From positions 1 through 10,781 of IMG/VR virus record IMGVR_UViG_2778261567_000015: 10,781 nucleotides of DNA; one strand, 5' to 3'. Under the pieces are notes generated by a model. That model was not told the DNA's origin, ran no database searches, and saw nothing but the letters and a program-made list of their open reading frames with translations. Positions within the stretch are counted from its first letter, which is position 1; every line of letters begins with the position of its first letter. A program made the position numbers and the translations under genes. Shown in pieces: positions 1 through 10,781 of the stretch. The stretch is from a virus (taxonomy: Duplodnaviria; Heunggongvirae; Uroviricota; Caudoviricetes).

Positions 1-282
1 TTACCGCCGTAACCGCTCCGGCTTCTTCCAGTGGTACGTTATTTTTTCTTTCTCCCGATACAGTTCAACGCGGCGATTGTAGGCCAGCATTTCCAGAACG
101 CGGATCCGTATGTTGCGCATATCCACATCATTAAGCTGGATACCATCACGGCGCATCACCTCCGCAACAACACGCACATAATTTTCGGCGGTCACGCTGT
201 CCGGCTGCGTGGCCTGTTCGTCAGCCTGCTGGCTGATTCCGGCAACGCGACGGATTAATCGCAGTAGTTCGGCTTCTGTCAT
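1..282 (-). CDS. hypothetical protein (93 aa)
   Basis: Complete ORF: ATG at 280-282 with a GGGGG stretch just upstream on the minus strand, stop at 1-3. No family recognised. Confidence 0.45.
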   Translation of the reverse strand: MTEAELLRLIRRVAGISQQADEQATQPDSVTAENYVRVVAEVMRRDGIQLNDVDMRNIRIRVLEMLAYNRRVELYREKEKITYHWKKPERLRR

Positions 283-314
283 TGTGCCCCCATCGTTCTG
301 ATAGTCTGGTGTCG

Positions 315-530
315 TCGGGTCCTTCCTGGAATTATGGCCCGTTACGGGGCGGCGACCTCGCGGTTTTTATCTGTTTATGAAAATTTTTCTGGAAAAAGCA
401 TGTCGGCACTTCTCGAACATAACTATTTGTTTTTAAATAGATACACAATAAAAAGAAACGACACGGTAATCATCTGAAATGGCGATTTATGACGCTTTCA
501 TGTCGTTTCTCAGTTTTGTTCAATAATTGC
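315..530 (+). other. lambda-type cos site A (cosQ-like, cosN, long cosB-like region)
   Basis: 12-mer GGGCGGCGACCT at 347-358, preceded by CGGGTCCTTCC...GTTACG and followed by CGCGGTTTTTATCTGTTTATGAAAATTTTTCTGG, which closely matches my recollection of the lambda cohesive end and left-end sequence. Further lambda-like blocks follow (CATAACTATTTGTTTTTAAATAGATAC; inverted AGAAACGACA 454-463 / TGTCGTTTCT 501-510, R-site-like). Confidence 0.7.
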
Positions 531-537
531 GCTGCGG

Positions 538-1080
538 TTACTCGCCTTTCTTCTGTAGCAACTTTTCCGGTACGTCTCCGGTAGTTTCCATCAGGTAATC
601 AGCCAGTATCTTCGGGAGGTTGTCGGCAACTGTGGCACTGGCATTACAGGCTTTAGCCACTTCCTTTTTAAGTCCATCCAGCATGGCGGGGGTCATCTGT
701 GGGAATCCCCTTTGCATAGTAAGCGGGAGGCTGTCCATGATTGAAGAAATCTGGTTCGCCAGCTTTGAAAGCGCGTACAGGCAAAAACCTGTATCAATCA
801 CGTCGCCGCGTTCGCGCTCGTTTTTAAGCTCCTGCGCCTCCGCCTGGGCCGTCAGTAATCGGATTCTTACGCGTAAAAGTTCATCATCGTCGATATCGCC
901 TTTGTCGTTTGTAACCTGGTCAATTGCATTGCTTACCCGATTGTCTATCACGCTGGCAACATCGTAAAAAGCCTCGCGGCCTTTACGTTCAACGGGAGTC
1001 ACTCCCCACTTGTCGAACGCTGTCGCACTTACACGGCAGCTTTGCGCCATAGTTTTTTTGTTCATCAGGTGCGATTTCAT
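538..1080 (-). CDS. phage small terminase subunit, lambda Nu1 family (TerS-like)
   Basis: Translation aligns by eye to lambda Nu1 along most of its length (e.g. LLTAQAEAQELKNERERGDVIDTGFCLYALSKLANQISSIMDSLPLTMQRGFP versus Nu1 RLTRAQADAQELKNARDSAEVVETAFCTFVLSRIAGEIASILDGLPLSVQRRFP). Start is ambiguous: GTG 1092, ATG 1080 (GTGGGGA SD upstream) or ATG 1065 (MNKKT, matching Nu1 MEVNKKQ). Confidence 0.8.
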   Translation of the reverse strand: MKSHLMNKKTMAQSCRVSATAFDKWGVTPVERKGREAFYDVASVIDNRVSNAIDQVTNDKGDIDDDELLRVRIRLLTAQAEAQELKNERERGDVIDTGFCLYALSKLANQISSIMDSLPLTMQRGFPQMTPAMLDGLKKEVAKACNASATVADNLPKILADYLMETTGDVPEKLLQKKGE

Positions 1081-1092
1081 CAATATCCCCAC

Positions 1093-1257
1093 TTAGTTAA
1101 GGTTTCAGGTTGGTGTATTGGTTTTATATTTCCCTTTTTATTCATAAAGATAGAGCAAACAACAAAACCACCACCACCACCCTGAAAAAGCTCATAAATA
1201 GCGAAAAACCGCGAGGTCGCCGCCCCGTAACGGGTCCATATGCCGGAAAGGACCCGT
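1093..1257 (-). other. lambda-type cos site B (cosQ-like and cosN conserved, cosB diverged), oriented toward the TerS-like gene
   Basis: Reverse complement of 1201-1257 is a near-identical copy of 315-371 (ACGGGTCCTTTCCGG...GTTACGGGGCGGCGACCTCGCGGTTTTTCGC). cosN 12-mer is the complement of 1214-1225. Lambda-like sequence continues about 25 bp (CGCTATTTATGA), then becomes unique, including an (ACC)5 run at 1167-1182. Confidence 0.7.
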
Positions 1258-1280
1258 AAAAAAAGCCGGATTTCTCCGGC
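1258..1280 (-). terminator. intrinsic terminator (minus strand)
   Basis: Hairpin GCCGGA-TTTC-TCCGGC (1265-1280) followed on the minus strand by a U-run (A-run 1258-1264 on plus). Lies downstream of the decoration-protein gene. Confidence 0.5.
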
Positions 1281-1401
1281 CTGTCTCAGATAGTTTTCAG
1301 TATGCGATCGATGTCGCCGTCATCGCCTGGGTTTCTGCTTTAAATTTACTCGCCAGCGGTAGCGCCATGATGCTTTCATTCGTTGCCATCGTTCCCCCTG
1401 C

Positions 1402-1737
1402 TTATCGCGCCAGCGGCTGAACGGATACGCCAGAACCCGCAAAGGCGGCGCATTTTTTCGCGTCAGTGTCGACGCTCTCAGGCCAGTTTACGGCGGCGAT
1501 ATTAAATATCCCCGTCTTGTAACACTGTGCTGATTTCTGCTTTGACGTGTCCACAGGGTACGAGGTCAGATAAACAGCCTTGCCAGATTCCTGACCATCC
1601 CACGGCTTAAACTCGCCATTGTCCGCCAGCATCAGCGGGGTAAATTCCTGAATGACGCCAGCATCAGCGGCAAAATGTACCAGCGTCGTGGATACCTGCT
1701 GACTGCCTGCAAATAACTCAATGTATGGAGTGTTCAT
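1402..1737 (-). CDS. head decoration protein, lambda gpD-like (111 aa)
   Basis: Same length as gpD and shared blocks TPLMLAD, WDG, and GIFNIAAVNWPES...KKCAAFAGSGVSV versus gpD GTFRYEDVLWPEA...KKRTAFAGTAISIV. GGGGGA SD before the ATG at 1737. Confidence 0.75.
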   Translation of the reverse strand: MNTPYIELFAGSQQVSTTLVHFAADAGVIQEFTPLMLADNGEFKPWDGQESGKAVYLTSYPVDTSKQKSAQCYKTGIFNIAAVNWPESVDTDAKKCAAFAGSGVSVQPLAR

Positions 1738-1748
1738 AGAATCCCCCG

Positions 1749-2804
1749 TTAACCAATTTTGACGGTAACAAATTTGCGAATATCTGCTGGTACCGGCTGC
1801 GGTGCGCTGTGCGTCTGAACGTACTCAATCGCCGGATCGCCGTCTTCAATCCAGTTTTTCGGGTAGTACATGTTTTGCGTTGCACCAGTTCTTACCGCTT
1901 CCTGATCCATAATCGCGCCATAGGCCACCAGCCCTTTATTGTTGGTGTTGCCCAGGACCAGCAAATCAGGCTCAAGGAAATATTTTTCGGTACCGTCGCT
2001 GTCAGTGTATTTGCCGGAATAGACGATAAGGGCCAGATCTCCCAGATAGCCTTTAAAGCTCACCACTTCGCCCAGGTTTTTACAGGCCAGTTCGGCGGCG
2101 GATTCTGAACCACGGGAAAGATCGTACAGCTCACGGAATTTTTTAAAGCTGCGTAACGTGCGCCATACCTCAGCGCCCATAATCATGACGTTGGCGGGGC
2201 AACCTGCCTGATCTGCGTATAGTTCGATGTCATAGATTGGATCGTAAATATCTTTATCATGCTCGGACCATTTTTTACCCTTGGCCTGCTCTATGATGCA
2301 GTTTTCCGGTATTTTCCAGTCGATTTCATAGCGTTCTATGCCTTCGCCCTCAATGATGTTTTTTCCGGTCGTGACCGCATTTACAGCCAGCCATTCAACA
2401 CGCGCTTTAATGGCGTTTATCTGGCGGCGCATGTTGCCAGTAATCAGGCGCATACGGCGGTAGGTAGGGTCGTTAAGCAGTGCCGGATCTTCTCCAGCCA
2501 TGCGCATTATCGTTTTTAATGGATCGATTTCGTGCTTTGGCTTCATGTAGCCTGGTTTAATCGTGCTGGTTTCGTACCCTTTATCGCGCTGAACCTGGCT
2601 ACCCACCACAGGCGAACAAAACGCCGATATAGTGACTTCTTCAATGTCCAGGTTATCAAGCATGATGTTCTGGGTGCTGAATGTCGCCACGTTCGGGAAA
2701 AACAGTGTGGTAAACAGCGGACTGAATTTATATTCCGCAATATCCCCGCGATTCAGGTACGTGAAAAGCTGATTAGTTGTAAGTGCTGTTGCTTTTACTG
2801 TCAT
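1749..2804 (-). CDS. major capsid protein, lambda gpE family (351 aa)
   Basis: Multiple long blocks match lambda gpE from memory: KFSPLFTTLFF/KFDPLFLRLFF, KPGYMKPKHEIDP/TPGYVKPKHEVNP, DPTYRRMRLITGNMR/DPAYRRRRIIMQNMR, WSEHDKDIYDP/WSKRDKSTYDP, FKGYLGDLALIVYSGKY/YKGMYGDVAIVVYSGQY, YPKNWIEDGDPA/YPKNWVTTGDPA. GGGGGTG SD; start overlaps the upstream stop (TAATG). Confidence 0.9.
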   Translation of the reverse strand: MTVKATALTTNQLFTYLNRGDIAEYKFSPLFTTLFFPNVATFSTQNIMLDNLDIEEVTISAFCSPVVGSQVQRDKGYETSTIKPGYMKPKHEIDPLKTIMRMAGEDPALLNDPTYRRMRLITGNMRRQINAIKARVEWLAVNAVTTGKNIIEGEGIERYEIDWKIPENCIIEQAKGKKWSEHDKDIYDPIYDIELYADQAGCPANVMIMGAEVWRTLRSFKKFRELYDLSRGSESAAELACKNLGEVVSFKGYLGDLALIVYSGKYTDSDGTEKYFLEPDLLVLGNTNNKGLVAYGAIMDQEAVRTGATQNMYYPKNWIEDGDPAIEYVQTHSAPQPVPADIRKFVTVKIG

Positions 2805-3010
2805 TATTCACCCCCGTGAACCTGATTCATACCCAGCGCCGCGCGTAAATAGGCGCGTACCTGCCAGCCTGTTGACGGCTCAACCATCGCCAGCGGATCA
2901 AGTCCTGCCGCAATGCCTGCTTTTACGTTCTGCTGGTGGCGTTCCTTGAGCGCCTTCACGATGTCGGGGCTTATGTACACCGAAACACCGCCTTTTTTCT
3001 CTTCAGCCAT
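2804..3010 (-). CDS. hypothetical protein (68 aa), first gene of the morphogenesis operon
   Basis: ATG at 3008-3010 with AGAGGA SD; stop overlaps the capsid ATG (translational coupling). No family recognised. Confidence 0.5.
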   Translation of the reverse strand: MAEEKKGGVSVYISPDIVKALKERHQQNVKAGIAAGLDPLAMVEPSTGWQVRAYLRAALGMNQVHGGE

Positions 3011-3045
3011 AGTAAGAAATTCCTCTTTGACTTAAAAAATCATAA

Positions 3046-3094
3046 CTGGATGTTCATCCAGCTCTGATTATAATCAGGATTGCATTTTGTGCAA
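3046..3094 (-). promoter_or_regulatory. candidate sigma70 promoter of the morphogenesis operon with a perfect palindrome at the start of the leader
   Basis: Minus strand reads TTGCAC (complement of 3089-3094), 16 bp spacer, TATAAT (complement of 3067-3072). Perfect 7-2-7 palindrome CTGGATG-TT-CATCCAG at 3046-3061 sits between promoter and SD. Confidence 0.4.
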
Positions 3095-3174
3095 TGATGT
3101 TGAGTTGTGTTGCAAATTATGAAATGATTATCCCGATCATGTGTGCCAGCGCACCAAAAAACCTCATATGCAAA

Positions 3175-3241
3175 AGCCCGATAAGCCCCCTCTGACCTTA
3201 TCGGGCTTTTTTTGGGTACAAAAAAGCCGGATTTCTCCGGC
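3175..3241. terminator. tandem intrinsic terminators separating replication and morphogenesis modules
   Basis: Hairpin GCCCGATAAG...CTTATCGGGC (3175-3205) followed by a T-run (3206-3212). Second hairpin GCCGGA-TTTC-TCCGGC (3226-3241) with a flanking A-run, acting on the minus strand just after the stop at 3249. Confidence 0.55.
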
Positions 3242-3248
3242 TGTGTGA

Positions 3249-3521
3249 TTAGCTGTCTGGGTAATTACGCCATATTTCATCGCTTACACCATCTATACCC
3301 ATTTCAGCATAAGTGCGATCGACTGCCTTTCTCAGGTCTCCGAAGTTATCCGGCGGCTCCGGTGGCTTCTGTGCCTTCCTGGAACATTCCAGCCGTCGCA
3401 TCGTAACCTGATGCCGTTCCTTGTCTGTCTCCACCAGCTGCATGACTTCACCCCATCGCGCCGCCGCCCTCCGGTAAAATCCTTTCGCCTCGAGTTCCTC
3501 CGCTATGCGGTCATGTACCAT
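3249..3521 (-). CDS. PerC-like small transcriptional regulator (about 90 aa)
   Basis: ATG at 3519-3521 directly after the SSB stop with GGGGTGAGG SD. Motif MVHDRIAEELEAKGFYRRAAARW resembles the PerC family as I recall it. The longer track ORF (to 3641) overlaps SSB and is not favoured. Confidence 0.55.
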   Translation of the reverse strand: MVHDRIAEELEAKGFYRRAAARWGEVMQLVETDKERHQVTMRRLECSRKAQKPPEPPDNFGDLRKAVDRTYAEMGIDGVSDEIWRNYPDS

Positions 3522-3531
3522 CCTCACCCCC

Positions 3532-3942
3532 TCAGAACGGAATACCATCACCGTAAGGGTCATCGCCTCCCGCTGGTGGCTGATTACCCTGTGTGCCTGT
3601 GGTTTTGCGTCTGTTCCCGCCAGGACGTGCCGCGCGGGCACTGATTACGCTGTCTGCGATAACCTGCCAGCCCTGCCGCGTTTCGCCGTTCTGGCCTGTC
3701 CACTGGCTTACCTGCATCGTGCCGGATACGCTGGCAACATCGCCTTTTTGATGTTTAGCCAGGAAATCGGCCTGTTTGCCAAATGCGATGACCGATAACC
3801 ATAACGTCGCCTGTCCGTCCTGTGCCTGGCTGCATGGCAAAGATACCGCCATACGCGCCAGCGTCATCGGTGTGCCCTTGCTGGTCTGTTTTACCTGCGG
3901 GTCGTCCACCAGCCGCCCGTAAGCGGCTATCTGTGCCGTCAT
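3532..3942 (-). CDS. ssb: single-stranded DNA-binding protein (SSB)
   Basis: OB-fold-like N-terminal pattern (YGRLVDDPQV...WLSVIAFGKQADFLAKHQKGDVASVSGTMQVSQWTGQNGE), Gly/Pro/Gln-rich linker and acidic C-terminal tail DDPYGDGIPF, comparable to the DDDIPF tail of bacterial SSB. Confidence 0.8.
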   Translation of the reverse strand: MTAQIAAYGRLVDDPQVKQTSKGTPMTLARMAVSLPCSQAQDGQATLWLSVIAFGKQADFLAKHQKGDVASVSGTMQVSQWTGQNGETRQGWQVIADSVISARAARPGGNRRKTTGTQGNQPPAGGDDPYGDGIPF

Positions 3943-4208
3943 AATTCCACCTCTCCGGTTTTAACGTTGATGGTTGTTACCTGTTCCGCTTCGGCAATCT
4001 CCCGTTCTGTCAGCGTGGCAAAGTTTGCCGCCGCTGTGGTCATGAATGCGCTTATCAGTTCGGGATGTTCCTTCGCGTATCCTTCCCGCGTGTGGCGGTC
4101 TATCGTTCTGATTGCCACCTTTAAGGCGTGCTCTGTCATGTCTAACGCTTTATATTTTGGCGCTGTTCTGTCTCTGCGCATTTTGGTTATCTCCTCACTC
4201 ATGCTCAC
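3939..4208 (-). CDS. hypothetical protein (about 87-89 aa)
   Basis: ORF coupled to the ssb start (overlap). GTG at 4208 or ATG at 4202, with GTGAGG upstream. No family recognised. Confidence 0.45.
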   Translation of the reverse strand: MSMSEEITKMRRDRTAPKYKALDMTEHALKVAIRTIDRHTREGYAKEHPELISAFMTTAAANFATLTEREIAEAEQVTTINVKTGEVEL

Positions 4209-4395
4209 TTTTACGCCTCACTTTTTAAAGCGTCTCGCTTCGTCTCACTTGAGATTTTTGTGTTTTGTATGTGCATGTTTCATAAGTATTTTTTTACTCC
4301 TCACTTTTGAGCATGTATACAGGTGAGAAAGTGAGTAATCGTGTTAATATTTTGTAAAAACCTCACCATTACTCACTTTTGCTACTCACTTTTTA
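4193..4395. repeat. iteron-like array, candidate replication origin
   Basis: At least 7 direct copies of (C)TCACTTTT (e.g. 4203-4213, 4216-4227, 4296-4308, 4371-4380, 4384-4395) plus inverted GTGAG copies (4323-4335) in AT-rich DNA immediately 3' of the replication ATPase gene. Confidence 0.5.
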
Positions 4396-5790
4396 CAGTG
4401 GTCCTACATCATCACCATCAATGTAAATCACGGCGTCTTTTTCCAGTTTGGCTAACCATCGCCGCATATTTTTCACGTCATACCCAAGCCGTTTCATGTC
4501 ATCACGTAACAGCGGGATCGTGCACTTGTCGCCGTTCTGTGTACGTGAACGGATGCACCCCCATAGCGCGGTATGGTTTTCCGTCTTGTTGCCTGCCTCC
4601 TCGATGCGCTCCAGTTCAACGGGAGGGCGCGGCTTATCCACCACCACCAGCGACGTGATTAACTCCCCGTCAGCGTCGGTAAAAAGCTCCACCACCCGCA
4701 AATCATAGGCAGCCTCTTTGAGTTCCTCCGCGTCCTTCATTTTGGTGCATGAGATAACCAGCGCTTCGCTTCCTGCGTCCTCCCTGCGTATCCGGTATTC
4801 AGCATCCAGCGAAGCACGAAATGCACTGGAACCGCGCGCGCCTTTCGTCTCATCCTTGCCGGAATGGTGAACCACCAGCACCGTGGCCCCTGTGCGCCGT
4901 TTCAGTTCGTCACAACCACGGATAAACGCCCCCATATCACGGGAATCATTTTCATCATTGCCACCAAAGCACCGCGCCAGCGTATCCAGAATAATCATGC
5001 GTACAGGTTTACCCGTTTCCCGCTCCACCTGACGGGCAGCGATAACCAGTTCATCAACATCAAGCGGGACAGCCGGAAAGACCGGACGGTTTACCAGATA
5101 CAGATTTTTCACCTGCTCCCCGTGTACAACCTCCCACGCTCTCACGCGACGCGGTACACCAATACCGCCTTCACCAACCACATAGAGAACAGCGCCATGT
5201 GCAACCCTGCGGCCTCCCCACTGGCGGCCCGTGGAAACGTGACACGCCCACGAACCCGCAAGGAATGATTTATAGGAACCGCTTGCCCCGTATATGCTGC
5301 ATAGCGACGATGCCGGAATAATCCCCTTTACCACGTAATCTAATTGCGTGTCGTATCCGGCAGATCCAACGCTCATCGGTAGCGTGGTTTTTCGCTGGTG
5401 GCTCAGGCTTTCCCCGCGTTCCCATGTCTCCCTAAGCCGTGGAAGCTGGTCGCTCCATTCCTCCAGCAATTCGAAATTTTCAGAAAACAGGCGCGCTTCC
5501 TGGACTCCTGCGATTGCCAGTTTCGTGGCGATGGTTAACAACTGCACTTCGTCAATATTTCCGGCACGTATCACTTTCGCCCTGAACCGACCTTTATCAA
5601 CAATCTGCAAGTTATCCAGTTCGCTTAACTGATAACGCCCCAGGTAAACGGGAGGGACTGGATCGCCTGCTTTTTTGGCCTGTGCAATGATGTAGTGCTC
5701 TGCAAATGAGTGAGCATTATCACCCGCAAAAATAACCGCTTCGGTGTGTTTATCTTTCGGTAACAGTTTTACATTCGGTGCCAGTTTCAT
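4393..5790 (-). CDS. replication ATPase / helicase, RepA-DnaB-type RecA fold (465 aa)
   Basis: Walker A-like GASGSYKS, Walker B-like RMIILDT, VLVVHHSGK motif typical of RepA-like helicases; C-terminal basic domain. Start overlaps the upstream ORF stop (ATGA). Confidence 0.8.
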   Translation of the reverse strand: MKLAPNVKLLPKDKHTEAVIFAGDNAHSFAEHYIIAQAKKAGDPVPPVYLGRYQLSELDNLQIVDKGRFRAKVIRAGNIDEVQLLTIATKLAIAGVQEARLFSENFELLEEWSDQLPRLRETWERGESLSHQRKTTLPMSVGSAGYDTQLDYVVKGIIPASSLCSIYGASGSYKSFLAGSWACHVSTGRQWGGRRVAHGAVLYVVGEGGIGVPRRVRAWEVVHGEQVKNLYLVNRPVFPAVPLDVDELVIAARQVERETGKPVRMIILDTLARCFGGNDENDSRDMGAFIRGCDELKRRTGATVLVVHHSGKDETKGARGSSAFRASLDAEYRIRREDAGSEALVISCTKMKDAEELKEAAYDLRVVELFTDADGELITSLVVVDKPRPPVELERIEEAGNKTENHTALWGCIRSRTQNGDKCTIPLLRDDMKRLGYDVKNMRRWLAKLEKDAVIYIDGDDVGPL

Positions 5791-6086
5791 TTTTTACCCC
5801 TGAATCCGTTAATCATGGTTTTCAGCTTCTGGATGTTTGCCCGTGCTCTGGCGTTGCTGGTGGGCACGTTATGCGGCGCGGTCTGTACCAGAGAAAAATC
5901 ACGCCGGAACTGATAAACAGGCATCACGCAATCATATTCGTAACCTTCACGGCGGTAAGTTACGCACCGTCCCGCCACGCCCTTAATCATTACCGTGCCG
6001 CCGTACTGGTCGCGGTAAATATCACCGCGCGTAAATTTAGGGTGAGTGTTGCCACTGGCAGTTAAGCCAGAATATTTAAGTTTCAT
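5787..6086 (-). CDS. hypothetical protein (99 aa), coupled to the replication ATPase
   Basis: Complete ORF; 4-nt overlap with the downstream ATPase start. No family recognised. Confidence 0.5.
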   Translation of the reverse strand: MKLKYSGLTASGNTHPKFTRGDIYRDQYGGTVMIKGVAGRCVTYRREGYEYDCVMPVYQFRRDFSLVQTAPHNVPTSNARARANIQKLKTMINGFRGKK

Positions 6087-6091
6087 TATTT

Positions 6092-6325
6092 TTATTCTCC
6101 GGTGTGCTGTTCTTTATATCTGTCGTGCAATAGATCTATTTCTTGCAGTTCCATTATTACAGGCTCAAGAAGCGTTATTAATGCCGTGGCAATTCTTGAT
6201 TTTTGTTTGTCGCGTTCATTGTCGCCAAGTGTTTCAAGCCATATGCGCAATATTTCCAGCATGTTTTCACTGTGAGAAAGTGCAAGAAATGCGCGGTATA
6301 TTGTTTCGTGGTAAATATCACGCAT
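6092..6325 (-). CDS. hypothetical small acidic protein (77 aa)
   Basis: ORF in a tightly packed co-directional operon; start 2 nt after the upstream stop; Glu/Asp-rich. Confidence 0.5.
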   Translation of the reverse strand: MRDIYHETIYRAFLALSHSENMLEILRIWLETLGDNERDKQKSRIATALITLLEPVIMELQEIDLLHDRYKEQHTGE

Positions 6326-6326
6326 A

Positions 6327-6548
6327 TTAATCCCCGTCCGTCGTTTTTCTTAAAATAACCTCTGTCACGAAATCAGCATAATCGGCGGCGATATTCAGTA
6401 CATCAAGCCCCGTTGATTTATATTCTCTCGTGGAAAGTAAGAAAAAAGCCGCTCTAATAAGTTCTGGCATTGACGAAAGCGCATCAGCCGCATCATCAGG
6501 AACGCCGGAAAATTCCTGTTTCAGGGAATTAAAACGATCATCACGCAT
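6327..6548 (-). CDS. hypothetical small acidic protein (73 aa)
   Basis: Start chosen at ATG 6546-6548 (MRDD...), with GGGGTGGG upstream and just before the upstream gene's stop. The track's longer start at 6596 overlaps the upstream gene. Confidence 0.45.
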   Translation of the reverse strand: MRDDRFNSLKQEFSGVPDDAADALSSMPELIRAAFFLLSTREYKSTGLDVLNIAADYADFVTEVILRKTTDGD

Positions 6549-6762
6549 AACCCACCCCATTTTCACAATCAGCAACAAGAATATTTTTAGCGTCATTCAG
6601 CGACCGCGTGGCGGTGTATCGGATACATTCCAGGGCGAACTGTGTCCGGTCTTTCTGTTCTTCTCCCTGCGCAAGCTCTGCCGTGCATTCAATATCAATA
6701 AGCGCGTGCATCAGCGTAGTGAGTGCGGCGGCGGCTGCGTCCGGTGTGGTTTTATTGCACAT
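6541..6762 (-). CDS. hypothetical small acidic protein (73 aa)
   Basis: Start chosen at ATG 6760-6762 (MCNKTT...), preceded by GGAGGGG SD and overlapping the upstream stop. Confidence 0.45.
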   Translation of the reverse strand: MCNKTTPDAAAAALTTLMHALIDIECTAELAQGEEQKDRTQFALECIRYTATRSLNDAKNILVADCENGVGYA

Positions 6763-6983
6763 GTACCCCTCCGCATTTTTTTTCGTTAGAAATAAGCGTT
6801 CTTCTTTCCTGTTCATCGCTCAGGAATACGCAGACCTCACCGCTAAGGCGTTTAAGTAAGCCGATGATTGCCCCTGATTCGCTGTCGGTCATCATGCCAG
6901 GGTAATCCTCTGCCAGTGCGCAAATAACTTCGATTTGGTGGGCGCGTTCTGCTGCCTGTTGTAGCGTGATTTCCTGGCTCATA
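6752..6983 (-). CDS. hypothetical small acidic protein (76 aa)
   Basis: Start at ATG 6981-6983 overlapping the stop of the Icd-like gene (ATGA); ends at the TAA at 6752-6754. Confidence 0.5.
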
Positions 6984-7146
6984 AGCCTACCCCCTGACGA
7001 ATACGGGCGACAAAAATAAGATGTGCGTGCGGCAGCTGGGCGCGGGCTTCGCGTTCTGTTGCTGCCGTGACGGTAAAGAGTGAGGTTTGTTTTTCCTGGC
7101 ACTGCATAAAGCGCCAGACAAAGTAAGGGCGTGCGGATACAGCCAT
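6979..7146 (-). CDS. Icd-like small protein, paralog 2 (55 aa)
   Basis: ATG at 7144-7146 with AGGAGCC SD. Paralogous to 7433..7630 (FVWRF...TEREAR...FVARIRQG). Family name 'host cell division inhibitor Icd-like' is from memory. The track ORF extending to 7482 is treated as a non-functional extension. Confidence 0.5.
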   Translation of the reverse strand: MAVSARPYFVWRFMQCQEKQTSLFTVTAATEREARAQLPHAHLIFVARIRQGVGL

Positions 7147-7149
7147 GTG

Positions 7150-7432
7150 AAAGGCTCCTGTAGTGAAATTAAGGAGTCTCGCTACTACGCTGCTAAACGG
7201 GGTGGCGAGACGTAACAGGGTTAGCAGACTGGCACTACAGGAACCAGCGAGCGCAAAGGCTCCCCCGTTACGCCCCGCCATAATGCGGGTATGGGTAGGT
7301 TTACGGACACAAAAAAACCGCATATCGGAATGTAAGCGGCTGTCCGCTGTAGTATTCAGGCTGCTAAACCCGGTCGCCATGTGGGCGATGGGTGAAGCAT
7401 ACAGCCCCGTGATAATTTTTTGCAAGCGGTTT
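7150..7432 (-). other. structured spacer between the Icd-like paralogs; candidate riboregulatory leader
   Basis: Open in both strands with no convincing protein. Contains two direct GCTGCTAAAC copies (7189-7198, 7360-7369) and the complementary GGGTTAGCAGAC (7218-7229); inverted CCTGTAGTG/CACTACAGG (7158-7166 / 7233-7241) overlapping the SD of the 7146 gene; weak hairpin plus 7-nt U-run on the minus strand at 7311-7339. Confidence 0.3.
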
Positions 7433-7630
7433 TTACGCATGATGTGACCCCTGACGAATACGGGCGGCAAATACAGCAACACAACCGGACGGGCAACGGT
7501 TACGCGCTTCGCGTTCCGTCCAGGCGGTTACGTGGATTATTTGAGATTCTCCGGCACTCAGTGCCAGAAAACGCCACACAAAGGCCGTTTGTGTGTGTAC
7601 AAGGTGTGGTATATGATTTACAGCAACCAT
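7433..7630 (-). CDS. Icd-like small protein, paralog 1 (65 aa)
   Basis: ATG at 7628-7630 with AGGAGCC SD; motif FVWRFLAL...TAWTEREARNR...FAARIRQG. First gene downstream of the minus-strand promoter at 7732-7761. Confidence 0.55.
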   Translation of the reverse strand: MVAVNHIPHLVHTQTAFVWRFLALSAGESQIIHVTAWTEREARNRCPSGCVAVFAARIRQGSHHA

Positions 7631-7700
7631 AACGGCTCCTAGTTTACGTTGTTGGTTAGAAGCCCCGTATGTGTTCCAGCACTGCGGGGTTTCGTCTTTT
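7585..7700. repeat. copy 1 of a ~115-bp duplicated unit (5' leader plus first codons of the Icd-like gene)
   Basis: Shares with 8330-8447 the blocks CGTTTGTGTGTGTA, CCATAA, TGGTTAGAAGCCC and a GC hairpin followed by a T-run (7663-7700), in the same order and spacing. Confidence 0.6.
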
Positions 7701-7719
7701 CTGTACCTTGCATCAACAA

Positions 7720-7802
7720 GGTGTAAGACACAATGTAAAATAACGGTGTCTTACACGTCAACCCTTCAAAATATTTTTTTTTCGTGTATATTGTCTTACA
7801 CC
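7720..7802. promoter_or_regulatory. divergent promoter pair with inverted-repeat operator
   Basis: Inverted repeat GGTGTAAGACAC (7720-7731) / GGTGTCTTACAC (7745-7756) and a third half-site TGTCTTACACC (7792-7802). Minus-strand promoter TTGACG (complement of 7756-7761) and TACATT (complement of 7732-7737). Plus-strand promoter TTCAAA (7765-7770), 16 bp, TATATT (7787-7792). Confidence 0.45.
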
Positions 7803-7822
7803 AAAAACATGAGGGGTTAAAC

Positions 7823-8002
7823 ATGGCAACGGGTCCAAAGAATGCAAAATCACAATCTGTAACTGCACGTATTGCCCATGAAATTATTGAAGGCATGGAG
7901 AACGTGAAAGAAGAAGGTGAAAGCACGGGGCAGTTTATAAACGCAGCCATGCGCGGCGAAATCAAACGCCGCCAGCGTCGCAAGGCCAAAGAATCAGAAT
8001 AA
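7823..8002 (+). CDS. ribbon-helix-helix (CopG/Arc/MetJ-type) DNA-binding protein (59 aa)
   Basis: ATG at 7823 with GAGGGG SD. Predicted beta-strand QSVTARI followed by two helices (AHEIIEGMENVKEEG, STGQFINAAMRGEI) and a basic tail. The track's GTG start at 7784 lies inside the promoter and is not favoured. Confidence 0.55.
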   Translation: MATGPKNAKSQSVTARIAHEIIEGMENVKEEGESTGQFINAAMRGEIKRRQRRKAKESE

Positions 8003-8059
8003 TCACTATCAGCGCCGTGGTGTGAGGTACTACGGCGCATTGCTTTACAGGGCAGTACC

Positions 8060-8287
8060 ATGACCAACAACACACTATCACCAATACAAGACACGCAAAC
8101 GCAAGATGATGAAATCATCCGGCAAAGGCAGTCAGAAGCCTGCGCCAGACTTGAGGAAGAACTAACCAGAACAAAAATACCACCACCAGCGCCGCGCTTA
8201 GTGCCACCAGAAAAATTTGCCCTTGAAGATTTTGTCGATAAATACCCACGGCGGCTTAAATCCGGCAAAAACCGACCGCCAGGATGA
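8060..8287 (+). CDS. hypothetical protein (75 aa), acidic N-terminus, Pro-rich centre, basic C-terminus
   Basis: ORF downstream of the RHH gene on the same strand. Weak SD (AGGG 12 nt upstream). Followed by hairpin GAAACGGA-TTAT-TCCGTTTC (8308-8327). No family recognised. Confidence 0.4.
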   Translation: MTNNTLSPIQDTQTQDDEIIRQRQSEACARLEEELTRTKIPPPAPRLVPPEKFALEDFVDKYPRRLKSGKNRPPG

Positions 8288-8329
8288 GTGCACAAAACCG
8301 AACTCTGAAACGGATTATTCCGTTTCCGG

Positions 8330-8447
8330 GGCGTTTGTGTGTGTATAAAGAGTAAGCTATGCTCTTTTATAGCCATAATCTTTACCTCAATTAATGGTTT
8401 GGTTAGAAGCCCGTTGGTGTTCATAGCGCCAGCGGGCTTTGCTTTTT
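8330..8447. repeat. copy 2 of the duplicated leader unit, carrying a remnant Icd-like start
   Basis: Same block order as 7585-7700. Minus-strand ATG at 8374-8376 with SD GAGGTA encodes MAIKEHSLLFIHTQT (compare MVAVNHIPHLVHTQTA) and then loses the Icd-like sequence. GC hairpin 8409-8437 plus T-run 8438-8447. Confidence 0.55.
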
Positions 8448-8506
8448 GTGTTGATTGTGTGTAATGTGTCACTACACATAAATACATTACATGAGGTGTA
8501 ATTAAC

Positions 8507-8686
8507 GTGTCAACACACAAAAACGAAAGGCGTGGTAATCCTCCGTTCCAGTTCCGTTTAGATCCTGACTTACGGGAAAAGATGGAAAAGGCACAACAAC
8601 ATGACGGCGATGATTCTCTTGCTGCCTGGATAAAGCGAATAATCCGCAAAGAATTACAGCAACGCGGCATAGAACCCAAAGGGTAA
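8507..8686 (+). CDS. Arc/Mnt-type ribbon-helix-helix repressor (59 aa, GTG start)
   Basis: GTG at 8507 with GAGGTG SD 8 nt upstream; stop TAA at 8684-8686. PPFQFRLDPDLREKMEKAQQ...SLAAWIKRIIRKEL resembles P22 Arc (PQFNLRWPREVLDLVRKVAEE) and Mnt (PHFNFRMPMEVREKLKFRAE). Absent from the ORF track because it is under 60 aa. Confidence 0.55.
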   Translation: MSTHKNERRGNPPFQFRLDPDLREKMEKAQQHDGDDSLAAWIKRIIRKELQQRGIEPKG

Positions 8687-8836
8687 TTACATTGCCCACC
8701 AGCCTGATAGCGGCTATCATTCCCGTGCTTATGTTTGGGATCACATACACATAAGGCGCAGCAGGTTAATTGTTCACAAGGGCGTTCCGGCAACGGGGCG
8801 CTTTTTGTTATGTTCATCGTGTTATGCCTCACACCA

Positions 8837-9043
8837 TTACGCAGCCGTTCCGCGTGCTTCCTGCTCACGTTCTTTCATCCATGCGATTACGTCTTCCTCA
8901 TACCATCCGCGACGGCGTAAACCAACGCGAAAACCCTGCGGAAATTCTCCGGCGTTGATCATGCTTTGAAGCGTGCTGTCTGCCTTGATGTAGATAAGTT
9001 TTTTTACTTCCTGGCGAAAGATGACTTTTTTGATTGCTTCCAT
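8837..9043 (-). CDS. alpA: AlpA-family phage transcriptional regulator (68 aa)
   Basis: ADSTLQSMINAGEFPQGFRVGLRRRGWYEEDVIAWMKERE fits the AlpA/Vis MerR-like HTH pattern (...GxFPKPxKLGxRxxxWxxxEVxxW). Position next to the integrase is typical. Confidence 0.75.
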   Translation of the reverse strand: MEAIKKVIFRQEVKKLIYIKADSTLQSMINAGEFPQGFRVGLRRRGWYEEDVIAWMKEREQEARGTAA

Positions 9044-9060
9044 CGTGATTTACCTTGTGA

Positions 9061-9151
9061 ATCCGGTGTATTCCGGTGACAAATACGGTAAATCATCGGA
9101 TACGGGTAAAAACAGTTCCCACCGTTTTTAAACTGTTAGAACCGTTTTTTA
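9061..9151. promoter_or_regulatory. repeat-rich region upstream of alpA (candidate operator sites)
   Basis: Direct repeats TCCGGTG (9062-9068, 9072-9078), TACGG(G)TAAA (9084-9092, 9101-9110) and ACCGTTTTT (9121-9129, 9141-9149), the last pair forming an inverted arrangement with GGTAAAAAC. Confidence 0.35.
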
Positions 9152-9176
9152 TGTTGGTGATTTGAAAGGGATTTAT

Positions 9177-9198
9177 AAAAAAAGCGGCATTTCTGCCG
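9177..9198 (-). terminator. intrinsic terminator (minus strand)
   Basis: Hairpin GCGGCA-TTTC-TGCCGC (9183-9198) followed on the minus strand by U6 (A-run 9177-9182 on plus), directly after the stop at 9211. Confidence 0.5.
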
Positions 9199-9210
9199 CT
9201 TTGAGGATTG

Positions 9211-9462
9211 TTACCGCCATTTTTTTGGCCTGCCTCCGGTCTTCATGGTTGCCGGACGAACTACCCTGTCGATACTTTCAGCCATATTCCTGGATGCCCC
9301 ACGGGATACCAGGAAATCTACTACCTGTTTTTTTGATGGGGCCGTCGTTCTGTCCTCCGGATCGTAGGTTGACCAAAATTCATGCTGAACCATCAGGGCC
9401 AGTTGCAGCCCGTCGCAATTGCATCTGAAATTTTTTTGCATCTTAACGGTTTCATGTTTCAC
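9211..9462 (-). CDS. hypothetical protein (up to 83 aa), doubtful
   Basis: ORF between int and alpA ending just before a terminator, but GTG start with weak SD and no recognisable family. Confidence 0.3.
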   Translation of the reverse strand: MKHETVKMQKNFRCNCDGLQLALMVQHEFWSTYDPEDRTTAPSKKQVVDFLVSRGASRNMAESIDRVVRPATMKTGGRPKKWR

Positions 9463-9539
9463 GGCCTTGTCGTTAAATTTGATGCAATTATACGACGGTT
9501 TTACATGGTTTTCGTAGTTTTTACTGGTTTTCTGTACAG

Positions 9540-10781
9540 CTAAACGGCTCGGATACCCCTTTTACCACTGGCGAGGGTTACGCCCGTCGCCGCAGCCTCG
9601 ACAAATTCGCCCCACCAGCGCATAAGCACCACGCGTTTTTCTATGTAGTTGCTCCGGTTGTATGCCCGTCTCACTTCGTTAGTGTCGACGTGGGCAAGTG
9701 CGGCCTCGATTACGTCCGGCTCGAATCCTTCCTCGTTCGCTGCTGTACTGAATATGGCGCGTAATCCATGAGACACCAGCACGCCAGCGAACCCCATGCG
9801 TCGTAATGCTGCGTTTGCTGTCTGGCTGTTCATTGGCTGCCGTGGGTCTTTCAGACTCGGGAAAACATAATCGCGGTGGTGGCTGATTGGTTTCATGGCC
9901 TCCAGCACCGCCATAGCCTGACCGGAAAGTGGGATAACGTGATCCCTGCGCATCTTCATGCGTCCGGCGGGTATCGTCCAGCGTTGCGCGTCCAGGTCGA
10001 TTTCATCCTACCGCGTTGATGACGCTTCGGCGGGACGGGTTACGGTCAGTAACTGCCATTCAATCAGTAATCTGGTCTGCCGTTCTGTTGCCGATACTGA
10101 TAAAGCCTGCATAAGCTCCGGCAACTGTTCGGGGCGGATTGTTGGCATATGTTTTTTTACAGGGGAGGGGAACGCCTTACGCACATTCATAGCCGGATTG
10201 GCATCAATCAGCCCACTGTTGGCGGCGTAATCCATTACCTCATTAACGCGCTGTAAAACCCGTTTGAGTGTTTCCAGGTTGCCGCGCTCCTTGATGGGGG
10301 TAAGCACCTCAACGAACCTGCGAGCGGTCAGGGTGTCTATTGGGGTGTTGCCGATGAACGGGAATACATATTTATCCAGCGATCGCCAGATGTCTTTAAT
10401 CGTGTTGGGGGCCAGATTCTGGCTGATTTTCACCTGGTACCATGCCGCCGCCACATTTTCGAACGTGTTCCCTTGTCTTCGGGCCTCTGCCTCTCGTTTT
10501 TTCTTCTCATGGCCCTGCGGGTCAGTTCCGGCACTGATTAACGCTCTGTACTCGCTACGGCGTTTTCTGGCATCAGCCAGGGAAACATCATCAAGCGATC
10601 CAAAACTCAGCAATATTCTTTTTTTGTCCGATGGCCGGTAGTAGGAAAATCGCCAGAGTTTTGATCCGGACGGTTTGACCAGGAGAAAAAGCCCTCCGCC
10701 GTCCTGTAGGGTGTATTCCTTTTCCGCTGGTCTGGCTGCTTTGATCTGCACCGTGGTTAATGGGGGTGTTTTTCTCGCCAT
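9540..10781 (-). pseudogene. int: P4-type tyrosine integrase interrupted by a single in-frame TAG
   Basis: N-terminal ORF 10011-10781 (GGGLFLLVKPSGSKLWRFSYY...) and C-terminal ORF 9540-9959 (HGLRAIF, RRAYNRSNY) are in the same frame, separated only by TAG (complement of 10008-10010). Read-through gives ...SSTR*DEIDLDAQRWTIPAGRMK..., where related integrases usually have Trp, consistent with TGG to TAG. Start codon is at the window edge. Confidence 0.75.

Follow-up and report, generated by a model that had tools for sequence, protein, structure and literature searches.

In this work we analyzed a 10,781-nt stretch of DNA (the window), which corresponds to positions 1 to 10,781 of the IMG/VR record IMGVR_UViG_2778261567_000015 and is a P4/phage-inducible chromosomal island (PICI)-like phage satellite. 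Two elements on its plus strand, each composed of a hairpin and a U-tract, face the 5' ends of icd-like coding sequence on the minus strand, and they share with their relatives a conserved secondary structure on the antisense strand. Each element probably serves as Rho-independent terminator for a small cis-antisense RNA that is transcribed on its own and blocks translation of the first cistron, and the most likely outcome is silencing of the satellite early operon. The elements are well supported as a family of sequences and structures, from which we infer transcription, pairing in vivo, repression and polarity.

The first-pass annotation of the window described hairpins followed by T-runs at 7663-7700 (CCCCGTATGTG...CACTGCGGGG, then TTTCGTCTTTT) and at 8409-8447 (GCCCGTTGG...CCAGCGGGC, then TTTGCTTTTT), and both are present. 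Their predicted resemblance to intrinsic terminators is borne out as well, with a stable plus-strand stem-loop standing directly 5' of a U-rich tract in each case. The plus strand of the first element (copy 1) folds with -23.3 kcal/mol (z -5.7, none of 200 shuffles being as good) versus -13.2 kcal/mol for the minus strand, and the corresponding values for the second element (copy 2) are -26.3 (z -5.5, 0/200 shuffles) and -15.3 kcal/mol. A simple terminator scan flagged copy 2 (8406-8440) and left copy 1 unflagged; the terminator stem of copy 1 has a one-base bulge and its T-run is interrupted (the U-tails are UUUCGUCUUUU in copy 1 and CUUUGCUUUUU in copy 2).

The two copies are homologous to each other. 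They share 14 identical bases, TTGGTTAGAAGCCC, at 7652-7665 and 8399-8412, and their alignment spans from about 7583/8330 to the end of the T-run. The 5' ends of the predicted RNAs were set at about 7 nt past the -10 hexamer and the 3' ends at the end of the U-tract (Table 1). The predicted copy 1 RNA is complementary throughout to the 5' untranslated region (UTR), the Shine-Dalgarno (SD) sequence and the start codon of icd-like-1. Both minus-strand signals were correctly located by the first-pass annotation through their plus-strand complements (CAT at 7628-7630 and GGCTCCT at 7634-7640): the former falls in the 5' arm of the first stem-loop (SL1), where CAU is complementary to the icd-like start codon, whereas the 12-nt loop of SL1 (7635-7646) holds the anti-SD CUCCU (7636-7640). 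Copy 2 is built of the same parts, namely SL1 at 8370-8405, whose loop holds the anti-SD CCUC (8385-8388), the terminator hairpin SL2 at 8406-8440 and a U-tail up to 8447. The earlier statement that both elements face Icd-like translation starts is correct for copy 1, which lies opposite a complete Icd-like gene, but not for copy 2, which faces a 5' remnant only. Past this remnant the minus-strand open reading frame (ORF) diverges, and it is without the FVWRF/TEREAR core of Icd. The same orphan arrangement, in which an RNA copy faces a remnant, was found in the loci L001, L073, L077 and L084.

Structure, strand and distribution of the module

A contig scan with an Icd-like alignment gave a single locus and was replaced by a degenerate DNA pattern for the Icd-like core (WRF...TEREA), which retrieved 120 loci from IMG/VR. 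The 14-nt word shared by the two copies was not used as a search pattern for the collection, where thousands of chance matches would be expected. Two arrangements occur upstream of the icd-like genes, either a C4 RNA on the same strand or the hairpin module. An alignment of 44 distinct module copies on the strand antisense to icd (A3) revealed the same architecture in all of them: a long imperfect SL1, one or two linker bases, the terminator SL2, and the U-tract. The loop of SL1 has 7-12 nt and carries the anti-SD (CUCC or CCUC) in most groups; in the MKDH... group the anti-SD is located within the SL1 stem.

From a MAFFT alignment, RNAalifold retrieved just the outer 4 bp of SL1, and the inner stem was defined by per-sequence folds. 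Under the resulting hand-set structure, 90.3% of cells in A3 are paired and compensatory changes are seen in 16 of the 26 pairs; 0/500 shuffles reach the observed values, and slid controls are 38-45% paired. An extended alignment of 59 distinct copies, which was fitted to the covariance model described below and hence is biased toward the structure, has 92% of cells paired and compensatory changes in 18/26 pairs; over both alignments, none of the 500 shuffles does as well and the slid controls are 35-50% paired. Helix 1 (SL1) has 83-86% of its cells paired and compensatory changes in 6 of 12 pairs, and helix 2 (the terminator stem, SL2) has 97% and 12 of 14 pairs in the 59 copies. The stem-loop upstream of the terminator is thus both conserved and covarying, which makes the element more than a bare terminator.

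The pairs that distinguish the strands are highly asymmetric. The 59 copies contain 228 G.U cells versus 7 A.C cells, and therefore selection for the structure acts on the strand antisense to icd (the plus strand of the window). This test is independent of the model-fit bias of the larger alignment. The antisense strand is also the more stable one in 44/44 sequences (mean -33.8 versus -23.3 kcal/mol, a difference of 10.5).

A covariance model built from the alignment (R1) was run on the window and on the related loci. The window contains exactly two copies (86 and 72 bits), with all else at or below 14 bits. The model has 122 matches across ~125 related loci, comprising 98 in the window and loci L001-L099 and 24 in the remaining loci, so that nearly every related locus has one or two copies. 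Outside this collection, blastn against 5426 complete E. coli genomes gave a match to the element in 1380, of which 617 reached a coverage of 80% or more; O157:H7 lineages are among the genomes with the element, for example strain TW14359 (NC_013008.1 1538478-1538599, minus strand). Although it is matched in about a quarter of complete E. coli genomes, the element is unannotated: no non-coding RNA annotation is present at its position in the matched genomes. Among phage records, blastn of the element gave no match, and tblastn of Icd-like-1 identified only one satellite-like record, in which R1 confirmed the RNA. The 24 further matches of the model include the deposited 'phage' record LR881103. 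In this record (LR881103.1, vB_KppS-Ant; L126 2200-3174) a 975-nt hypothetical coding sequence (CDS) is annotated over the antisense RNA gene and the icd-like start, and this CDS is probably an over-call.

Putative promoter and target of the predicted RNA

The first-pass annotation considered a plus-strand promoter for such an RNA not convincing. For the -10 region the comparison speaks against this judgment, as a TAnnnT hexamer is invariant in 59/59 distinct copies and only positions 3-5 vary (TATGAT in 41 copies, TATGCT in 11, TAGACT in 6, and TATAAT in 1). T1, A2 and T6 are the three most conserved positions of the sigma-70 -10 box. In every copy 76-80 nt separate the end of the hexamer from the final base of the terminator stem, whereas the distance between the hexamer and the complement of the icd start codon is 4 nt in 22 copies but 10 nt in at least 35 of them. 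A spacing that is constant to the terminator and variable to the ORF fits the prediction for a transcript of fixed length. The coding sequence on the opposite strand was also considered. The invariant A2 is complementary to the last base of a codon for His (CAT), Ser (TCT) or Tyr (TAT), which is T in every copy although other codons would encode the same residue. The invariant T6 falls opposite the middle base of a codon for Asn, Gln, Asp, Lys or Glu; here the residue changes and the base stays constant.

A putative -35 hexamer of copy 1 overlaps the icd-like codons His-Thr-Gln, and TTGTGT with the same 17-nt spacing is also present in copy 2 and in two sequence groups; one group has a TGn extended -10 in place of a -35. 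Copies 1 and 2 become similar about 5 nt ahead of the -35. From this point to the terminator the homology is retained in the orphan copy 2, in which the Icd core is lost, and the stretch kept by copy 2 corresponds to exactly one predicted transcription unit. Strand bias, SL1, the -10 box and this module boundary together support the suggestion of the first-pass annotation that the plus-strand terminators end RNAs antisense to the icd-like start.

In the loci read in detail (the window, L041 and L126), the R1 match faces the first translation initiation region (TIR) after the operon promoter; within the window, copy 1 sits at promoter A and copy 2 at promoter B (Table 1). Promoter B is the same as the promoter driving the full operon in L041 and L003. 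In the window and L041, internal icd-like genes with a C4 RNA ahead of them carry no R1 match. In the 59 distinct copies the predicted RNA covers the complement of the start codon and the anti-SD. Comparison with type I toxin-antitoxin systems shows the antisense overlap with the TIR of Icd-like-1, and the only indication that this protein may be toxic is its family name (NF033153).

In many islands, including L041 (2700-2850), L014, L022, L071 and L080, the first ORF starts as Icd-like and is then fused to a conserved ..KN.LIA...GYDSRAPHKTG.. segment, which terminates in a hairpin and T-run directly ahead of a C4 gene. The peptide conservation of these fused ORFs may reflect RNA-level conservation of an a1b1/isrK-type leader.

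Proposed mechanism, related systems and alternatives

In the proposed mechanism, the RNA gene would occupy the extreme 5' end of the minus-strand early operon, with its promoter within the first 10-15 codons of the first cistron, its body spanning the start codon, the SD sequence and most of the 5' UTR, and its terminator 25-40 nt downstream of the sense transcription start. The RNA would pair with the nascent icd-like mRNA and cover the ribosome-binding site, thereby blocking translation of the first cistron, and the RNA-mRNA duplex is a possible substrate of RNase III. By analogy with P1 c4/icd-ant and P4 CI/kil, in which blocked translation exposes the leader to premature termination, the untranslated leader would be prone to such termination, leaving the downstream replication and packaging genes off. 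A collision between the face-to-face promoters may add to the repression.

The predicted RNA resembles several known systems without coinciding with any of them. Like c4 of P1/P7 and the Rfam C4 family, it is a small structured RNA over the SD region of an icd-type first cistron in an early ('immunity') operon, and the C4 gene in related islands takes the same position upstream of the icd-like gene. C4, however, shares its strand with icd, matures by processing of the operon transcript and uses two short loops (a' and b') to act in trans, whereas the RNA described here is encoded on the opposite strand, apparently has its own promoter and terminator, and is fully complementary to its target. 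The same operon provides a precedent, as C4 pairs at the SD of Icd-like-2. Pairing of C4 with the icd-like-1 TIR or with the antisense RNA was considered separately and dropped, the duplex energies being no better than those of shuffles. The satellite setting with an integrase, an AlpA/Vis-like gene and a primase is similar to that of P4 CI and kil-eta. In P4 the CI RNA keeps the first short ORF of the left operon from being translated, and the replication genes are silenced by the premature termination that follows; CI is a processed RNA encoded on the sense strand, in contrast to the cis-antisense RNA proposed here. In P22 sar, SymR/symE and the Sok/hok-type systems, an RNA of ~70-80 nt is transcribed from a promoter in or beside the target, over the ribosome-binding site and start codon, and ends at an intrinsic terminator. 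The present RNA is similar to sar and the type I antitoxins in its cis-antisense location over the TIR of a potentially harmful small protein. The Icd-like proteins differ from typical type I toxins, which are small hydrophobic membrane peptides, and the target here heads a long operon. The literature searched gave no prior description of this RNA, which is kin both to C4/CI control and to cis-antisense control over a TIR.

Known RNA families do not account for the elements. Rfam C4 (RF01695) and the c4-a1b1 clan (CL00128) gave no cmscan match at E<=1 on the plus strand at 7600-7705 or 8350-8450, the only C4 and a1b1 matches in the window being those on the minus strand at 7198-7402. In a cmscan of the whole window at the same threshold, neither element matched any other Rfam 15 family, including sar, Sok and the OOP-type antisense RNAs. 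The Pas small RNAs of Shiga toxin (Stx) phages (10.64898/2026.05.13.724894) are distinct from the RNA described here. As a candidate for a known transcript we also considered EcOnc33 (Tree et al. 2014, PMC4104026; ~71 nt, minus strand), which was rejected: it belongs to the lambda-like prophage Sp6 and is antisense to an esterase gene.

The two hairpins might instead be terminators or insulators only, stopping stray or read-through transcription before it enters the divergent regulatory region. Copy 2 fits this reading in that it lies 120 nt downstream of the plus-strand ORF 8060-8287, is flagged by the terminator scan and could additionally end the plus-strand ylcI-orf75 transcript; moreover, no strong consensus plus-strand promoter was called. 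On the other hand, copy 1 has no plus-strand gene upstream, as the first-pass annotation noted and the ORF list confirms, and neither do its equivalents in most loci. A terminator-only function also leaves unexplained the conserved SL1 with its 114 strand-specific G.U cells (the helix-1 sum), the fixed 76-80 nt between terminator and invariant TAnnnT, and an orphan copy that retains exactly the interval from -35 to terminator. We therefore consider it unlikely. A role for the structure on the sense strand, as a 5' UTR element of the icd-like mRNA such as a stabilizing or translation-controlling hairpin, is extremely improbable. The complement of the hairpin does lie in the mRNA 5' UTR, where weaker hairpins are predicted (-13.2 and -15.3 kcal/mol), but only 77% of cells pair on this strand versus 92% on the antisense strand, 228 pairs turn into C.A mismatches, the sense strand is less stable in 44/44 sequences, and the flanking run becomes an upstream A-tract with no functional tail.

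Two further explanations accept transcription of the RNA. The promoters are close and face to face, with predicted starts at ~7725 (sense) and ~7624 (antisense), so that the embedded convergent promoter could block or collide with operon polymerases ~100 bp away, the RNA being a by-product; we regard interference alone as very unlikely, as neither the covariation of SL1 nor the anti-SD in its loop would then be selected. A mainly trans-acting RNA, directed at host mRNAs or at the early operons of co-resident or incoming satellites (cross-immunity) with its own icd-like overlap being secondary, would account for the stretch UGGUUAGA that is common to otherwise divergent variants, and for the orphan copy 2, which retains promoter and fold without an intact cis target. 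The complementarity of copy 2 to the icd-like-1 leader also points in this direction (-71 kcal/mol for the duplex versus -36 for shuffles). However, most of UGGUUAG is paired in SL1, where its partner is the complement of the start codon and its surroundings, and this pairing explains why it is conserved; the perfect 77-nt cis complementarity is always present while no trans target was identified. We give a primarily trans role only a small chance.

Several observations weigh against a cis-antisense RNA silencing the early operon. With respect to the promoter, the earlier doubt stands for the -35 region, which is weak and not conserved among the groups, some of which have different weak -35s, and for the consensus promoter scan, which calls no plus-strand promoter at the elements; homology of the N-terminal peptides could account for part of the -10 conservation. 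The shuffle controls overstate independence because the loci are related mobile elements. In 21 of the 59 distinct copies no full Icd-like gene lies opposite, and the first ORF is a chimeric leader extending into the a1b1/C4 region. This makes the TIR of the operon's first cistron or leader the target, rather than Icd as such. Finally, the literature searched contains no description of an antisense RNA at icd-like genes, and in the Hfq-CLIP (crosslinking and immunoprecipitation) list for E. coli O157 Sakai (PMC4104026), which covers Hfq-bound RNAs only and in whose genome the place of the island was not located, no RNA is labeled SpLE2, SpLE5, SpLE6, Sp7 or Sp16.

RNA-based immunity is a defining regulatory feature of P1 and P4. 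If correct, the cis-antisense reading would add a third form acting where the other two do, at the translation start of the first early cistron, and would explain the odd nucleotide-level conservation of the N-terminal codons of Icd-like genes. It also provides a testable handle on how satellites are kept silent before the arrival of a helper phage, as the 77-nt RNA should be removable by a synonymous change in the -10 hexamer. A bolder version, which we hold to be rather doubtful, is that a large group of enterobacterial PICI/P4-like satellites uses this RNA as its primary immunity switch, as a cis-antisense equivalent of P4 CI and P1 c4. The variable SL1 would then set specificity, and orphan copies such as 8370-8447 would be kept to silence in trans the early operons of related rival or incoming satellites.

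Genomic setting

The features of the window are listed in Table 1. Its capsid genes are also located on the minus strand. A long minus-strand early operon starts, according to a promoter scan, at promoter A. Its predicted sense start at ~7725 places the whole of antisense RNA copy 1 within the 5' region of the mRNA. Along the minus strand the operon order is 5' UTR, Icd-like-1, c4-a1b1, C4 RNA, b2 and a2, and Icd-like-2. Three small genes on the plus strand are divergent from the operon; the product of the first belongs to the YlcI/YnfO family, to which that of the third is weakly related. These names came from NCBIfam, a Pfam search of the small flanking proteins being uninformative.

Table 1. 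Predicted and annotated features of the window discussed in the text
Feature	Position	Strand	Evidence or details
Putative -35, copy 1	7589..7594	+	TTGTGT (3/6 match to TTGACA), 17 nt upstream of -10; tentative
-10, copy 1	7612..7617	+	TATGAT; T1, A2, T6 invariant in 44/44 and 59/59 copies
Predicted antisense RNA copy 1, about 77 nt	7624..7700	+	R1 86.2 bits over 7609-7705; minimum free energy (MFE) -32.0 kcal/mol, two hairpins
SL1 of copy 1	7625..7657	+	stem AACCAUAACG / CGUUG-UUGGUU
SL2 of copy 1	7659..7700	+	terminator hairpin 7659-7693 and U-rich tail UUUCGUCUUUU 7690-7700
Putative -35, copy 2	8335..8340	+	TTGTGT, 17 nt upstream of -10
-10, copy 2	8358..8363	+	TATGCT
Predicted antisense RNA copy 2, about 78 nt	8370..8447	+	R1 72.2 bits; MFE -32.9 kcal/mol; terminator scan
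icd-like 5' remnant opposite copy 2	8332..8376	-	ATG 8376-8374, MAIKEHSLLFIHTQT; ORF list and comparison
Sense promoter of module 2 (promoter B)	8484..8513	-	TTGACA, 18 nt, TAATGT
Sense promoter of icd-like operon (promoter A)	7732..7761	-	TTGACG, 18 nt, TACATT; promoter scan and sequence
SD of Icd-like-1	7640-7636	-	AGGAG
Icd-like-1 CDS, 65 aa, opposite copy 1	7433..7630	-	NCBIfam NF033153 phage_ICD_like, 64.8 bits; ORF list
c4-a1b1 element	7353-7402	-	Rfam RF03163, 36.2 bits
C4 antisense RNA, bona fide, icd strand	7198..7285	-	Rfam RF01695, 72.2 bits
C4 targets a2 and b2	7153-7165 (a2), 7189-7197 (b2)	-	inverted repeat I7, direct repeat D8
Icd-like-2	6982-7146	-	C4-controlled through a2 and b2
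RepA/primase-like gene	4393-5790	-	
AlpA-like gene	8837-9043	-	
Split integrase	9540-10781	-	ORF list

The minus-strand interval 7153-7402 comprises a canonical C4 system, with a1b1, an isrK-like terminator, C4, and then b2/a2 over the SD of Icd-like-2. The C4 loop and its a2 target co-vary across loci (GGTTCCTGTAGTG/CACTACAGGAGCC versus GGTTTCCAGATGA/TCATCTGGGAGCC), and these co-changing pairs suggest distinct specificity types of C4.

Each of the two divergent promoter regions has its own operator-like inverted repeats. Those at 7725-7810 are GTGTAAGACAC/GTGTCTTACAC, which flank promoter A, together with a third half-site, and those at 8455-8500 are TGTAATG...CATTACA. The repeats vary among islands in step with the adjoining YlcI/YnfO-type gene, which suggests that these small proteins are module-specific repressors. 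The minus strand additionally contains a 409-codon open frame (7639-8868) that is antisense to all three plus-strand genes and stops at a TAG within the SD region of icd-like-1 (CTAGGAGCC). Over the equivalent stretch of O157:H7 TW14359 (L124 6200-6793), RefSeq has a partial 'Icd-like' pseudogene. The 409-codon frame is probably spurious. The module 2 promoter (8513-8484, with a perfect TTGACA) would transcribe through this interval, antisense to ylcI and orf75.

The gene for the tyrosine integrase is broken into two ORFs, of 257 aa and 139 aa, at 9540-9959 and 10008-10781 on the minus strand, and is annotated in related islands as a single 1230-nt gene (about 409 aa). A frameshift or an interruption has probably made it a pseudogene, and the island may therefore be immobile. 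Two tandem 20-nt direct repeats (AAACAGTTCCCACCGTTTTT and AAACTGTTAGAACCGTTTTT) on the plus strand at 9110-9149, just upstream of the AlpA-like start, may be a binding site or part of an attachment/regulatory region. The minus-strand ORF at 3249-3641 has a PerC-like motif (..GFYRRAAARWGEVM..); its O157:H7 counterpart is annotated as a PerC family transcriptional regulator, and on this basis the satellite may carry a homolog of a virulence regulator.

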